The position numbers were made by a program. 64,000 nt of DNA, taken from assembly GCF_055900595.2 (NCBI RefSeq), contig NZ_CM148325.1. One strand, given 5' to 3'. Shown one piece after another: positions 3,001 through 9,000 of the stretch (position 1 is its first letter; every line of letters begins with the position of its first letter).

Positions 3001-6000
3001 GTTTCAACTGGCAAAGAGCGCCGAATAAAGCCTGAACTTAGTACCTTGCTGAATAATCTCTTGCACAGCGCAGAGTTTCAGGCGTTGCAGGATAAATATC
3101 TCACCGTCGGACATGATGTTGTGCATTCTGGTCCCTTCATGTCAGTTTATGAAAAGGTTCTTGGCGGAAAGTCCCGAAAGCGCTGCGCGATTAGTCGAAA
3201 ATTAATCTCGCCCGGCGAAGCGGTTTATGAATATCGTCATTTGGATAGTGTGGAATATATTGCAGCGAAAGCGGCCTTTCAGACATCTGAGCTAAATAAT
3301 ATCGCCCACCGGCATCATAATGATAGTTATCAGTGGCATGAATTTGCCGCCCAATGGCCTCGTCGGGGTTCACTTTCTCACCCAGATATTGCCCGTTATT
3401 TGTTTGAGCGCCAGGAAGGAAAATGCTTTGATGCCGCAGAGTTTATACAACTGATTGCGGAACCGTTTGTCTTTCCGATGCGTTTCATATGGGTTGCCGG
3501 GTTGTCCTTTGAATTACATCAGTATCCGGATGCCTATTTCGTAAATGACAATATGGCGGGTGAATTTGTTAATCTCTGCTGGATGGCTATGAAATGCGGA
3601 CATGCTGGCGACATTTTCAAACAACTGGCCCACGAGCCGCATGACGTTGCTGACCCTATTTACGCCATGCTCGCCACGTTTGACCGCGCTGATTGCCGTA
3701 GCGCGGCCGCCGCGCACTTTGGACAACCGGAACTACCGGAAATAATGGCACTGGCTTTCAGTTCGAGGTTATCGCTCGACAGCGTCCTTACCATCGCTGA
3801 GTTTGGTAAAAATCAGCCGCGATTTTCACATGCGCTAGCAACGGCCCTCCTGCGTTACAACCTGCACATCTACTCAAACTATATGCCGCAGGTTAATTGG
3901 TACCTTCAGGGGCTGGAACACTATGCTTTGGCAAAAGGCGGTCAACTTTTAAATTTCTTTGTGCATATTCCAGAACAAATTCCCGTTCTGGCGACCATGC
4001 TGGAACATGGCGTATTAGTGCGTGGGATCGGTGAAGGTGCCTATGATGGTTATGATAATTCAGCAAATTCATTTCATCATGCCGTCGTGATGCACTGCCT
4101 CGCGCACGCGCCGGAAAAAGTCCGCTACTGGATGGAAACACCCTGGATTCAGAACTATTTAGTGAATGCGCCGCTGCGTCAAACGGCGCGCCATGTGGAA
4201 GCCTGGCATAAAAAGTTTGGCATCAAATGAACGTTGCCGCTGCGCCTTAACGGCGCAGCCAGCACAATCACTCTTCGCTTTTCTTCTGGTTTAAGCCATA
4301 TTCCCGCAACTTATTGGCAATCGCGGTATGCGAAACACCGAGACGTTTTGCCAGTTTGCGTGTGCTGGGATAATTGCGATAAAGCTGGGTTAATACCGAG
4401 CGTTCAAAACGGCTGGTGATTTCGTCCAGCGAACCTTCCATCGCATCTTCGCCCACGGCTACCGTTGCGGCGTCATAATCCGGTAACAAAATATCCTGTG
4501 GACGCAGCTCATAGCCGTCCAGTTGTGTCAGTGCGCGATAGATAGCGTTCTTTAACTGCCGCACATTTCCCGGCCACGCATAACGCGTAAGTACAGTATT
4601 CAGGTCAGCGGCCAGTTTCGGACGCGGCACGCCCTGCTCGTCGGCAAAGCGGGCGACGAACAGCTCGGTTAACGGCATGATGTCCTGCGGACAATCACGT
4701 AGCGGCGGCAGATTGAGCGTCAACACGTTCAGACGATAATAGAGATCTTCACGGAACACGCCTTTTTGCACCAGTTCGACCAAATTCTTCTGCGTAGCGC
4801 AAATAACCCTTACATCGACATGCACTTCATGATCTTCACCAACTCGACGGAAAGTACCATCATTAAGGAAACGCAGTAATTTCGCCTGCATCCGTGGTGA
4901 CATCTCACCTATTTCATCCAGCAGCACCGAACCACCGTTCGCCTGCTCAAAGAATCCTTTCTTCCCTTCCGGAGCATGACCAAAGAGCTCACTCTCGACC
5001 GCATCTTCCGGTATAGACGCACAGTTCAGCGCCAGGTAAGGTTTGCTCGCTCTGGGGCTTGCCTGATGGCAGGCGTAGGCAAAGAGATCTTTACCTGTAC
5101 CGGTGTCACCCGTAATCAGCAACGGCGCGCTTAGCATCGCCAGTTTCTGCGCCTGTTCGACAACATGCTTCATTTTCGGGCTGACGGCGACAATTTGACT
5201 GAAGGCACTGACGTCCTGTGCAGCGACATTCTGCAACTGACGGCCCATACGAATCGTCGAGCGCAACATCACCACCGCACCGGTCAGAACGTGTTGATCA
5301 TTTTCATCCTGAAGATAAACAGGCGTAATCTCCATCAGGAAATTCTGCCCATTAATAACGACATGCTCGTTATGCGAGTCTTGCGGTTCGCTTTCCAGCC
5401 AGCGTAAAAAATTAAAGCCGTTAATTAATTGCGCGGCGGTATGGTTGCGCAGGCGATCCAATTTTTGCCCAAAAAGCTGACAGCTCGCCGGGTTCGCCAT
5501 ATCCACTTTGCTTTTCATATCAACAGAAAGCACAGGTTCAGGCAACGCCTCCAGTAACGCGCTCAACGCCAGATGCTCACGTTCGGAAGGCATCCACGGG
5601 ACAGTACGCACATCGGTAACACCTGCAATACGGCGTATTTCGGCCATCAGACTGCTGAAGCTCTCAAACTCCAGTTCAGCAAAATTGAGGTAGATTCGCC
5701 CAATGGGGTCAATCTCAATACCGCGTAAATCAATGCCTCTTAGCACGAGTAGATCGAGTAATTCGCGGGTCAGACCGAGTCGGTCTTCACAAAAGACTTC
5801 CAGACGCATGGGAACCTTCACCTGAAAAAAGAACAATTAATATGATGATATGACACTATTTGGATAGCAGGAAGGTTTCTGTCAACAATAATTGACACAA
5901 AGACGGAAAAACGGGCACTTCGGCGTAAAGATATCCGGTCAGCACCCGATATTGCATTATTTTTCGGCAGGAGTTTTGCCTTTTTGCAGCGTCTCTTTCA

Positions 6001-9000
6001 CCTGACCAATAAGCTGGCGACGGAAATCCCCGAGGCGAGGTTTGTCATCGTCAATCCACGGCAGCGGGCGGCAAAGCTCCATAGCTTTAATCCCCAGTCG
6101 TGCCGTCAGAAGTCCAGCACCAATCCCCTGAGCTGCGCGGGTAGACAAACGCGCAGCGAGATCTTGCGACATCCAGTCCATCCCCACTTCGCGCACCAGT
6201 TCGCTGGCTCCGGCAAAAGCGATATTCAGCAATACCAGCTTAAACAGGCGCAAACGGCTGTAATATCCCAGTTCAATGCCATACAACGTGGCGATGCGAT
6301 TAATCAAACGCAGATTGCGCCAGGCGATAAATGCCATATCCACCAGCGCCAGTGGGCTAACGGCAATCATTAACGTTGATTCCGCCGCTGAGCGACTGAT
6401 TTCGCGCCGCGCCTGAGCATCTAAAACCGGCTGGACCAGATGAGCATACAGGCTGACCACTTCACGATCGTTCTGCGTTTCATGGATTGACGCATACCAG
6501 CGTTGCAGCGCCGGATGGGACTGATCAATACCCGCCTGCTGCGCCAGTTTTTCACAAAATGCGCGGCCTTTGCCCGTGCCGTGGCTGTGCAATAAATCAC
6601 GCGCTTCGTCGCGTTCATGGGCGCGCTGTCGCAAGCGCCATAAGCGCCGCCACTCTGTTACCACAGAACCGACGCCAGCGCCGATAATCAATGCCCCAGC
6701 GGCACATCCACCCAGCGCTACCCAATCCTGAGTTTGCCAGGCATTCATCGTCCACTGCACGCCCTGTCCGACAACGCTTGCACCAAACAGAGCCAACCCG
6801 CCCATCACCATTTTGCGCCACAGGCTGCGTTTCGGACGTAACGCTGCGTCCATCACCGCTTCAACTTGCCCCTCTTCTTCCTGCGCTTCGTCGAGCGTGG
6901 CCGGGGCAAAATTTTGCGCCTGATTTTCGTCAAAGGTCTGCTGCGCCCTGAATTTTGGATTCTGATCGACCTCCAGCGGACCGTCGAAATCAATACGTGG
7001 TTTTAACGGTTCGGTCATCGCAATTTATCTCCTATTAAAAATTCCAGCGCAGCATCAAGACGAATATGCGGCAGCGGTTTGTCGACATCCATCACCTGCG
7101 GACGAAACGCCTCAAACTGGAAGCCTTGCTTATCCCAGAACGCCTGACCAGGCAAACGTGCGGGAACTTCGCCAGGATAAACAGTGAGCGGTGCGCCATC
7201 ACTGAGTCGATTACCGCGCAGCGCCGGGATTTTCTCACCGTTAACATCAATAATGCCGCTGGTGGTCGCCTGAACTGACGCCAGCCCCAGGCAGTCCATA
7301 CTGATCCCTTCGAACGCCGCATTTTGCCAGGCATCCTGAATCAGTTGTTGCAGTAATGAAACCATATTGGCGTGCTGATCGATGGTCACATGATCCGCTT
7401 TAGTGGCAGCAAACAATAGCTTATCGATAACCGGCGAAAACAAGCGCCGGAACAAGGTACGCTGCCCGTAGTGGAAGCTTTGCATCAGCTGCGTCAGCGC
7501 CAGACGCATATCATTGAATGCTTGTGGTCCACTGTTGAGAGGTTGCAGGCAATCCACCAGCACAATCTGCCGATCAAAGCGCAGAAAATGATTTTTATAG
7601 AACCCCTTCACCACTTTCTCGCAGTAATAATTAAATCGTTCGCGCAGCATTCCGGCATTGGTGTGCTTGTCGGCCTGTGCAAGTTTTGATTCGCCCCAGG
7701 CATCGACATCCGGCCACGGGAAGAATTGCAACGCGGGCGCACCTGCCATATACCCCGGCAAGACAAAACGCCCAGGCTGAATAAAGTGCAGCCCCTGCTG
7801 TTTACAGTGGTGGAGATAATCGGTCCATGCGGCAGCAATGTCTGCAAGACGGTTTTCGTCGGCAGGTGCTAGTGGGTCCAGCCCTTCGCACATCATTCGC
7901 CATTTTGCCGACCATTCGCCGCGCTGACCATTGAGTAAGCCCGTCATCTGGCGCGACCAGCTTAAATAGTCCTGCGCCAACATCGGCAAGTCGAGTAACC
8001 ATTCGCCGGGATAATCCACTATCTCCAGATACAACGTGGAAGTGTCTTTGAAGTGACGCAACAGCGAATCGTTCGATTTATAGCGTAGCGCCAGGCGAAT
8101 CTCACTGACGCCGCGTGTTGGGGTCGGCCAGGCGGGAGGATCGCCATATAACTGCGCCAGCCCTTCATCGTAGGTGAAGCGTGGAATGCCAAAGTCACGC
8201 TGGGGAATGCGTTTTACGCCCAGCAGGCGCTCTTCACGCACCGCACTTAATAGCGGCAAGCGTGCTCCGGCATGAATATTGAGCAACTGATTGACCATCG
8301 CAGTGATAAACGCGGTTTTGCCGCTGCGGCTAAGTCCGGTTACAGCGAGGCGCAGATGTCTGTCGACACCCCGATTCACCAGCGCATTAAGTTCATTTTT
8401 AAGTCGCTTCATTGCTGTCCTGTGGACCAGAAAAAAATCATTCGTAAGGATATGAATGTGGGGGCCATGCCCTTGATTATCAACTGCCCGTGTTGTCATC
8501 TTGAGGCGAACTCCATAAGATGTGCAGCATTCACGTTCGGACGGAGTTCCTGACCTATGTCCCCTACTATTTATGATATTGCCAGGGTTGCCGGCGTATC
8601 AAAATCCACCGTATCACGCGTGCTGAATAAGCAAACCAATATCTCCCCGGAAGCGCGCGAAAAAGTGTTACGGGCCATTGAAGAATTACAGTATCAGCCA
8701 AATAAACTGGCCCGCGCGCTGACCTCTTCGGGCTTTGATGCCATTATGGTGATTTCTACCCGCTCGACCAAAACTACGGCGGGTAACCCGTTTTTCTCCG
8801 AAGTTTTGCATGCCATTACCGCCAAAGCGGAAGATGAGGGTTTCGACGTGATATTGCAGACGTCGCACAACCCAGCTGAAGACTTACAAAAATGTGAAAG
8901 CAAAATTAAGCAGAAAATGATTAAAGGCATTATTATGCTAAGTTCGCCAGCAGATGAGTCTTTTTTCGCCCAACTCGATAAATACGATATTCCGGTGGTA

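Follow-up and report, generated by a model that had tools for sequence, protein, structure and literature searches.

Introduction

What do the products of ycjX and ycjF do in the cell? The question is raised here by a stretch of Escherichia coli DNA of 64,000 nucleotides (64 kb; NCBI RefSeq assembly GCF_055900595.2, contig NZ_CM148325.1), which as a whole is called the window below and in which the two genes lie side by side. The pair is a long-standing "known unknown" beside the well-studied Psp membrane-stress system, and it is conserved across Gammaproteobacteria and beyond. An initial annotation had described it as a translationally coupled P-loop NTPase and membrane protein of unknown function, belonging to the core genome, not acquired, and located directly upstream of tyrR. 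Our analysis suggests that the two proteins would form a 1:1 membrane-anchored GTPase switch on the inner membrane, which would serve in heat and envelope stress and act in parallel with PspA, and we give this reading a probability of about 0.4. The figure is no higher because we infer every step that goes beyond a GTP-binding protein with a coupled membrane partner.

The pair itself, its regulation, its linkage to psp and the structure of YcjX are already in the literature, although a search by protein and family names turned up no paper in which the YcjX-YcjF pair is given a cellular function. What is added here is the ribosome-binding site of ycjF inside ycjX, the ancestral gene order with its ycjM-ycjW insertion, the predicted fold of YcjF and a candidate docking motif. 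The context that the initial annotation lacked, namely a sigma-32 promoter, early heat induction, a ycjXF-tyrR unit, a Yersinia operon and psp genes 15 kb upstream, is brought in below. If YcjXF is indeed a GTP-controlled device for repair or gating, a nucleotide-driven arm would be added to bacterial membrane homeostasis.

The ycjX-ycjF pair and its junction

The interval 5957-8412 is filled exactly by two minus-strand open reading frames (ORFs), ycjX and ycjF (Table 1), and the RefSeq gene boundaries are identical in a strain that is 99.9% identical to the window, where the products are named "YcjX family GTP-binding protein" and "YcjF family protein". The gene and family assignments of the initial annotation (DUF463 and DUF697), its Walker A motif, the 4-bp overlap of the two genes and their place directly upstream of a co-oriented tyrR, across a spacer of 147 bp, were all recovered. 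A look across 5426 complete E. coli genomes showed the segment 4200-8600 in 5413 of them and the block is for this reason core genome, as had been stated; the pair is real and far beyond chance. A longer ORF of 494 amino acids starting at 8499 was considered as ycjX and rejected, since the promoter would fall inside it and the RefSeq annotation disagrees; the alignment with the Shewanella YcjX, which begins at residue 6 of the 465-residue form, likewise counts against that start.

In order to see how general this arrangement is, we scanned GTDB, taking a single genome for each species, with an alignment of the E. coli and Shewanella YcjX, which gave at least 595 confirmed matches; all neighbourhood counts given below refer to the best 80 loci, all of them from Gammaproteobacteria. 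In the neighbourhood check that the initial annotation had proposed, ycjF follows ycjX on the same strand in 73 of the 80 species; the two genes share an ATGA or GTGA overlap of 4 bp in 61 of these, and in nine they are separated by, or overlap by, no more than 30 bp. In 60 of the 61 overlapping junctions the codon five codons before the ycjX stop encodes glycine, written as GGA (52) or GGG (8), while the remaining junction has AAG (Lys); GGC and GGU, which are common glycine codons in these bacteria, occur in 0 of 61. A GGA or GGG codon here yields GGAGA(U) 9-10 nucleotides before the ycjF start, and a Shine-Dalgarno-like 4-mer is present at -16 to -5 in all 61 junctions. This constraint at a synonymous site of ycjX is therefore a sign that the upstream gene has retained a Shine-Dalgarno sequence. 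The counts are inflated by the relatedness of the species, and the pattern is nonetheless seen across Enterobacterales, Vibrionales, Alteromonadales and Oceanospirillales. With its overlapping stop and start and the apparent ribosome-binding site inside the upstream gene, ycjX-ycjF fits a translationally coupled pair.

YcjX is a GTP-binding protein of Ras-like type with solved relatives

YcjX matches the whole of Pfam PF04317 (DUF463, COG3106; profile positions 1-443 of 443) with 602.2 bits against a cut-off of 25 (E 8e-181). In a search of the Protein Data Bank (PDB) sequences it is 47% identical over its full length to the YcjX of Shewanella oneidensis (PDB 6NZ4, 6NZ5 and 6NZ6; E 1e-123), entries titled "YcjX stress protein" that comprise YcjX-GDP in two crystal forms and YcjX-GDPCP. 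Reportedly, the paper behind these structures is that of Tsai et al. (2019, J Mol Biol 431:3179), and it apparently concerns YcjX alone, not the YcjX-YcjF pair. The YcjX half of our AlphaFold model superimposes on 6NZ5, the GDPCP complex, with a template modelling (TM) score of 0.88 (Foldseek), and the three entries together give 0.86-0.89 (E 4e-40), the solved fold being a Ras-like G domain with helical insertions. The two proteins are the same family with the same G1, G3 and G4 motifs, model and crystal differing in species. The next PDB matches to the model, GTPases of the EF-Tu type and MglA, reach only E values of about 0.07-0.1 and are insignificant. Because of this, together with the invariant G1, G3 and G4 motifs and the TM score to 6NZ5, YcjX is taken as a distinct guanine-nucleotide-binding family.

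Hydropathy gave no hydrophobic segment in YcjX, a soluble Ras-like guanine-nucleotide-binding protein; that it binds and hydrolyses GTP is suggested by the motifs and by the GDP- and GDPCP-bound orthologue crystals. The description "P-loop NTPase of unknown function" can accordingly be narrowed for YcjX, a GTP-binding protein with orthologue structures, and it still holds for the pair, which has no assigned cellular function. Published biochemical characterisation, likewise, exists for YcjX as a molecule and not for the function of the pair.

YcjF is predicted to be an all-helical inner-membrane protein

YcjF was recognised by PF05128 (DUF697) with 188.1 bits (cut-off 27.7) and by the NCBIfam model TIGR01620 (UPF0283) with 432.8 bits (cut-off 160). 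The AlphaFold model has a mean predicted local distance difference test (pLDDT) of 85.6 and a predicted TM score (pTM) of 0.74, and it is helical throughout: a low-confidence acidic tail is followed by a transmembrane hairpin, three short cytoplasmic helices and the five helices of DUF697. Hydrophobicity is strong in helices 70-88 and 98-123, with further hydrophobic segments at 211-234 and 256-276, and the loop 89-98 between the first two helices has no Lys or Arg. These features describe YcjF as an all-helical inner-membrane protein with a predicted transmembrane hairpin and a hydrophobic DUF697 domain. Among solved structures there is no informative relative of this fold, which is confidently predicted and, as a model, new here.

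We found 1473 relatives of YcjF among 1.84 billion cluster representatives, 904 of them at E values up to 1e-10. An alignment of 108 diverse members shows D200, D227, R234, Y246, G298 and R317 to be invariant and S221-P222, W233, R255, E273, Q297 and R307 to be nearly so. The hairpin 211-234 is probably re-entrant because it has Lys/Arg-rich flanks on both sides, and the loop 277-287 may face the periplasm because it is free of Lys and Arg across the family. In the tail, per-column conservation of the same 108 sequences picks out hydrophobic islands at F11, L/F23, F29-D30 and F37-x-P39. The Pfam description reportedly mentions DUF697 domains that are at times joined to GTPase domains in other phyla. 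A fusion of a GTPase to DUF697 was not present among the best 150 listed representatives, all of which were YcjF-like, and a search for homologous proteins yielded close orthologues only; the long YcjF representatives checked carry no additional Pfam domain, and tblastn of YcjF against plasmids returned only YcjF orthologues and no fusion.

A predicted YcjX-YcjF complex

The initial annotation had also suggested predicting the structure of the complex. For this, YcjX was joined to YcjF through a (GGGGS)6 linker and folded with AlphaFold using a same-locus paired alignment of 24 species. The best model has a pLDDT of 75.2 and a pTM of 0.72 over 848 residues, of which 118 (linker and tails) are disordered; for halves that do not dock we would expect a pTM of about 0.55, which is a rough estimate and not a computed control. 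In the fused model residues 27-29 and 37-39 of YcjF turn into beta strands and the block 26-35 reaches a pLDDT of 80, whereas in the model of YcjF by itself, built from a far deeper alignment, this part of the tail has a pLDDT of 61-67 and no strands. The tail residues that become ordered coincide with the conserved islands of an otherwise variable acidic tail, and conserved islands of this kind typically mark a short motif that binds a partner, which we propose this one to be. The prediction thus orders the tail motif, and the docking interface is so far a predicted one.

How the pair might work

We envisage the following mechanism for the membrane-anchored switch. YcjX and YcjF would be produced in matched amounts and form a complex. 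In it YcjX would be held at the membrane by the N-terminal acidic tail of YcjF, through the conserved motif there, and probably by the cytoplasmic helices of YcjF too. The GTP- or GDP-bound state of YcjX would then switch the conformation or the assembly of the membrane-embedded DUF697 domain. Two outputs can be imagined for a bilayer disturbed by heat or envelope damage: the inner membrane might be stabilised or re-sealed, or an ion or proton path might be controlled through the conserved buried charges D227, R234, E273 and R307. In either case YcjXF would act in parallel with PspA and not as part of Psp signalling. The tail motif as a candidate docking site and the buried DUF697 charges give this scheme defined points of attack, and the place to look for ycjXF phenotypes is predicted to be strains that lack psp and are exposed to heat, ethanol or lysis.

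The second output can be taken further, to a YcjF that is itself a channel or transporter gated by YcjX and GTP, a split version of the FeoB arrangement in which the charged residues of DUF697 line an ion or proton path under stress. The four charged residues just named are invariant or nearly so within hydrophobic helices, the Lys/Arg-free loop 277-287 would fit a second transmembrane hairpin, and YcjF is tightly coupled, 1:1, to a GTPase. Yet YcjF has no similarity to a known transporter or channel fold, the hydrophobic arms 211-220 and 224-234 are too short for a bilayer, the helix 288-316 carries about four basic residues, and no conserved substrate-related genes lie nearby, so that we consider a channel improbable. 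FeoB remains an analogy of working, in that a G domain controls a polytopic membrane domain; there is no homology, and YcjF, with four membrane helices at the most, shows no recognised transporter fold. Also among the closest known systems we count the membrane-remodelling GTPases that work through hydrophobic hairpins or paddles, among them LeoA and other bacterial dynamin-like proteins, atlastin and the GIMAPs.

Several observations weigh against the membrane-anchored switch. No experiment links ycjXF to a membrane phenotype, and in Yersinia robust phenotypes were obtained from non-polar deletions of pspF, pspA, pspB and pspC only (PMC3467454). The activity of YcjF is guessed from its composition, since its fold has no informative structural relative. 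The docking claim relies on pTM and on local shifts in pLDDT and secondary structure in a linker-fused construct with 24 sequences. A mirror-tree comparison is uninformative, because the correlation between YcjX and PspA equals that between YcjX and YcjF (r = 0.96 for both) and the partial correlations overlap. Among the seven loci that lack a downstream ycjF, two end just past ycjX and the other five belong to Pasteurellaceae, four of them with no ycjF within 8 kb and one with ycjF 2.6 kb downstream. Finally, Huvet et al. (PMC3041696) found that the association with psp was repeatedly gained and lost, and they argue for a loose linkage, with the E. coli systems answering different signals.

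The Pasteurellaceae loci that lack ycjF are from Pasteurella and Haemophilus (L062, L066, L068, L070), and in others of the family (L063, L064, L078) the two genes are spaced 1-2.6 kb apart; the 80 species show no other case of a broken pair.

Relation to the psp locus

In most of the 80 species the pair sits in a wider cluster, the usual order being a divergent pspF, pspABC(D), ycjX, ycjF and tyrR. pspC lies upstream of ycjX on the same strand in 53 loci (within 500 bp in 47), and a co-oriented tyrR follows downstream in 62 (in 44 of them no more than 400 bp from ycjF); the ycjX-ycjF pair is the invariant core of this neighbourhood. The cluster is flanked by two homologous NtrC-family AAA+ regulators, tyrR at one end and at the other the divergent pspF, whose product is 32-37% identical to TyrR in the aligned part.

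In the window the psp genes lie on the same strand as ycjX and 15.4 kb from it (pspA 25152..24484, pspE 23542..23228), separated by a sugar-utilisation block, ycjM-ycjV, ompG and ycjW, of ~14.8 kb (about 8500-23230). The same block presumably separates psp from ycjX in K-12. It is absent from E. coli strain SCPM-O-B-8794 and from E. albertii, in which pspE is about 118 bp from ycjX, from which it follows that the ycjM-ycjW block was inserted into an ancestral cluster of psp, ycjXF and tyrR. Previous surveys agree with this neighbourhood: Huvet et al. 2011 (PMC3041696) found ycjX and ycjF almost always adjacent, with ycjX extending 32 of 81 psp operons, and Popp et al. 2022 confirmed the DUF463-psp neighbourhood. 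In Yersinia enterocolitica the genes form a pspABCD-ycjXF operon (PMC3467454).

These linkages could mean that YcjXF serves Psp as an accessory effector arm. Its genes would share the PspF/sigma-54 promoter of pspABC in one transcript, its products would act with PspA, PspB and PspC on the damaged membrane, and E. coli would secondarily have split the cluster and rewired the pair to sigma-32. Beyond the frequent position of pspC directly upstream, the Yersinia operon and the short pspE-ycjX distance in block-less strains, such a scenario draws on the restriction of the sigma-32-like site to one clade (see below) and on the induction of ycjX and ycjF along with psp genes during phiX174 infection (PMC8125068). 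It is at odds with the Yersinia deletions, in which the non-polar loss of ycjXF gave no robust Psp phenotype, and with the repeated gain and loss of the association; DUF463 is also present in 14% of Psp-null genomes (Popp et al. 2022), and for two YcjF relatives (about 30% identity) the gene directly upstream encodes DUF463 and psp is not nearby, as is also true of the pair on a Sulfurospirillum plasmid (see below). We regard an accessory Psp arm as unlikely.

Comparison with the Psp system shows the two sides of this relation. Psp is the ancestral same-strand neighbour of ycjXF and both are induced by heat and membrane damage, but neither YcjX nor YcjF is related in sequence or fold to PspA, PspB or PspC, ycjXF in E. 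coli is under sigma-32 whereas psp is under sigma-54 and PspF, and ycjXF also occurs without psp. A possible, though doubtful, synthesis is that the pair is a split GTP-driven membrane device and the ancestral effector arm of the psp locus: the motif in the YcjF tail would recruit the GTPase, and the nucleotide would switch a domain of unsolved fold, with its re-entrant helix-SP-helix hairpin and buried charges, which would re-seal or reshape the inner membrane or gate an ion or proton path.

Promoter, transcription unit and heat induction

Upstream of ycjX, with its 3' end 44 nucleotides before the ATG, lies a putative sigma-32-type promoter that is the sole match to a relaxed sigma-32 pattern in the window, where 0.08 matches are expected. 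A scan of all loci with a strict pattern found it upstream of ycjX in just two relatives, and a scored search found a similar site at an equal distance kept only in the Escherichia/Enterobacter/Citrobacter clade. This limited distribution suggests that elsewhere the pair may be read from the psp promoter. The literature agrees for E. coli: a citation in PMC3041696 attributes a ycjX sigma-32 promoter to Nonaka 2006, the same source notes a ycjX-ycjF-tyrR transcription unit listed in RegulonDB, and ycjX and ycjF are among the early heat-responsive genes (PMC7572479). In E. coli and close relatives ycjXF thus appears to have a sigma-32-type promoter, with RpoH-dependent heat induction suggested by the literature.

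A terminator scan found no terminator between ycjF and tyrR on the same strand, and the hairpin after the ycjF stop is at the level of shuffled sequence (z -0.79). The lack of a sound terminator and the TyrR-box-like palindrome in the spacer (Table 1) both fit the reported read-through unit together with a separate tyrR promoter. A genomic SELEX (systematic evolution of ligands by exponential enrichment) study of minor sigma factors includes one in this spacer, 5810-5956, among its binding sites (PMC5493296).

Membership of the sigma-32 regulon, shared with chaperones and proteases, could also indicate that YcjX is mainly a cytosolic stress GTPase, acting for example in translation or protein quality control, which YcjF merely sequesters or anchors. 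The nearest PDB matches outside YcjX, EF-Tu-type GTPases and MglA, and the Pasteurellaceae in which ycjX is unlinked from ycjF point the same way. The translation-factor similarity is not significant, however, and near-universal adjacency and translational coupling to a membrane protein would be hard to explain if the membrane did not matter; a cytosolic role is, in our judgement, improbable.

Copies on plasmids

The initial annotation had called the pair "not acquired", which is right for E. coli, where it is core, but not for the family as a whole, since the pair also travels on plasmids. Domain matches to YcjF occur in 90 plasmid records, 55 of them from Enterobacter and 57 typed as conjugative. 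On the IncHI2A plasmid NZ_AP025834.1 of Enterobacter hormaechei a Citrobacter-like chromosomal block occupies positions 1-18510 of locus L085, in the order ycjT...ompG, ycjW, pspE, ycjX, ycjF, tyrR, tpx, ycjG, mpaA, mppA, and its YcjF is 97% identical to that of the window over the DUF697 part. Such a ycjXF block is carried by large conjugative IncHI2A plasmids, and the Enterobacter plasmid copies are a captured chromosomal block.

A different setting is seen on the plasmid pSDCE1 of Sulfurospirillum diekertiae (39.9 kb, Campylobacterota), which has ycjX-ycjF with the same 4-bp overlap at 3058-5474 of locus L086, among genes for a LexA-family regulator, DNA polymerase IV, Sir2, a macro-domain protein and a metallophosphoesterase, and a transposase. 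A LexA-like gene also adjoins the divergent ycjXF pair at locus L082. A further, divergent Sulfurospirillum plasmid match was considered as a separate copy and rejected, as it is a frameshifted copy of the same locus.

Such plasmid neighbours raise the question of whether ycjXF, in place of a housekeeping stress role, serves as a mobile module for conflict or defence like those of the DO-GTPases, the more so as Ravi et al. 2024 call the GTPase beside a TyrR-like regulator in psp loci "DO-GTPase family". The DO-GTPase/GAP1 systems (Kaur, Burroughs, Iyer, Aravind 2020, eLife 9:e52696) share with YcjX a TRAFAC-type GTPase and a conserved Glu after Walker B, which in YcjX is the invariant E137 after DxxG; many of these systems act near the membrane, and 38% have two paralogous GTPases. 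The ycjXF locus differs in having a single ycjX gene and no second paralogue, YcjF as the partner, the conserved housekeeping and stress genes psp, tyrR and tpx as neighbours and no variable effector genes. No GAP1-like partner was identified beside ycjXF, where no search aimed at GAP1 was made, and neither YcjX nor YcjF matched a model of PADLOC-DB 2.0 at E values up to 0.1. Given also the near-complete presence of the pair in E. coli and the chromosomal origin of the Enterobacter plasmid copies, a conflict role is highly improbable and is largely refuted by the distribution.

Table 1. Positions in the window of the genes, signals and protein segments discussed in the text
Feature	Position	Strand	Basis or remark
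ycjX coding sequence	8412..7015	-	465 amino acids, ATG start
ycjF coding sequence	7018..5957	-	353 amino acids, ATG start
tyrR coding sequence, ACT-PAS-AAA+-HTH (helix-turn-helix) regulator, downstream neighbour	5809..4268	-	Pfam
Putative sigma-32-type promoter of ycjX, TTGATA-N14-CCCCACAT	8483..8456	-	consensus TTGAAA-N13-15-CCCCATNT
Shine-Dalgarno AGGA of ycjX	8418..8421	-	5 nucleotides before ATG at 8412; direct sequence reading
YcjX G1 / Walker A GLSRSGKT, residues 26-33	8314..8337	-	G26, L27, S28, G31, K32, T33 invariant in a 24-species alignment
YcjX G3 / Walker B DYPGE, residues 133-137	8002..8016	-	D133, Y134, P135, G136, E137 invariant in the same alignment
YcjX G4 guanine-specificity motif TKAD ([NTS]KxD), residues 337-340	7393..7404	-	K338, D340 invariant; SKVD in Shewanella
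Candidate Shine-Dalgarno GGAGA for ycjF	7028..7032	-	within ycjX Gly461-Asp462 codons, 9 nucleotides before ycjF ATG
ATGA, ycjF start overlapping ycjX stop	7015..7018	-	ORF reading
YcjF N-terminal cytoplasmic tail, residues 1-65, proposed YcjX docking site	6824..7018	-	net charge -7, acidic, variable
YcjF predicted transmembrane hairpin, residues 66-121; helices 66-95 and 99-144	6656..6823	-	hydropathy, pLDDT 95-97
YcjF DUF697 domain, residues 183-341	5996..6472	-	five predicted helices, hydrophobic helix-SP-helix hairpin 211-234, conserved charges
ycjF-tyrR spacer with TyrR-box-like palindrome TGTCAATTATTGTTGACA at 5897..5880	5810..5956	-	sequence reading
pspA-pspB-pspC-pspD-pspE	23228..25152	-	BLASTP and ORFs; about 15 kb upstream of ycjX

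Other features of the window

An ORF of 698 amino acids on the plus strand (2134-4230) separates tpx from the 3' end of tyrR. RefSeq annotates it as a 680-residue "hypothetical protein" (WP_103253635.1), and it has no Pfam match and no PADLOC match. It is present in 32 of 5426 complete E. coli genomes, chromosomal every time, and is a rare single-gene accessory insertion.

Over the segment 4200-8600, where 5415 E. coli genomes match the window, only eight reach an identity of 99% or more, while 5202 are at 95-99% and 205 at 90-95%; with so few close matches, the lineage of E. coli from which the window derives is an uncommon one. The strains nearest over this segment include human stool isolates from Mali and one dog isolate.

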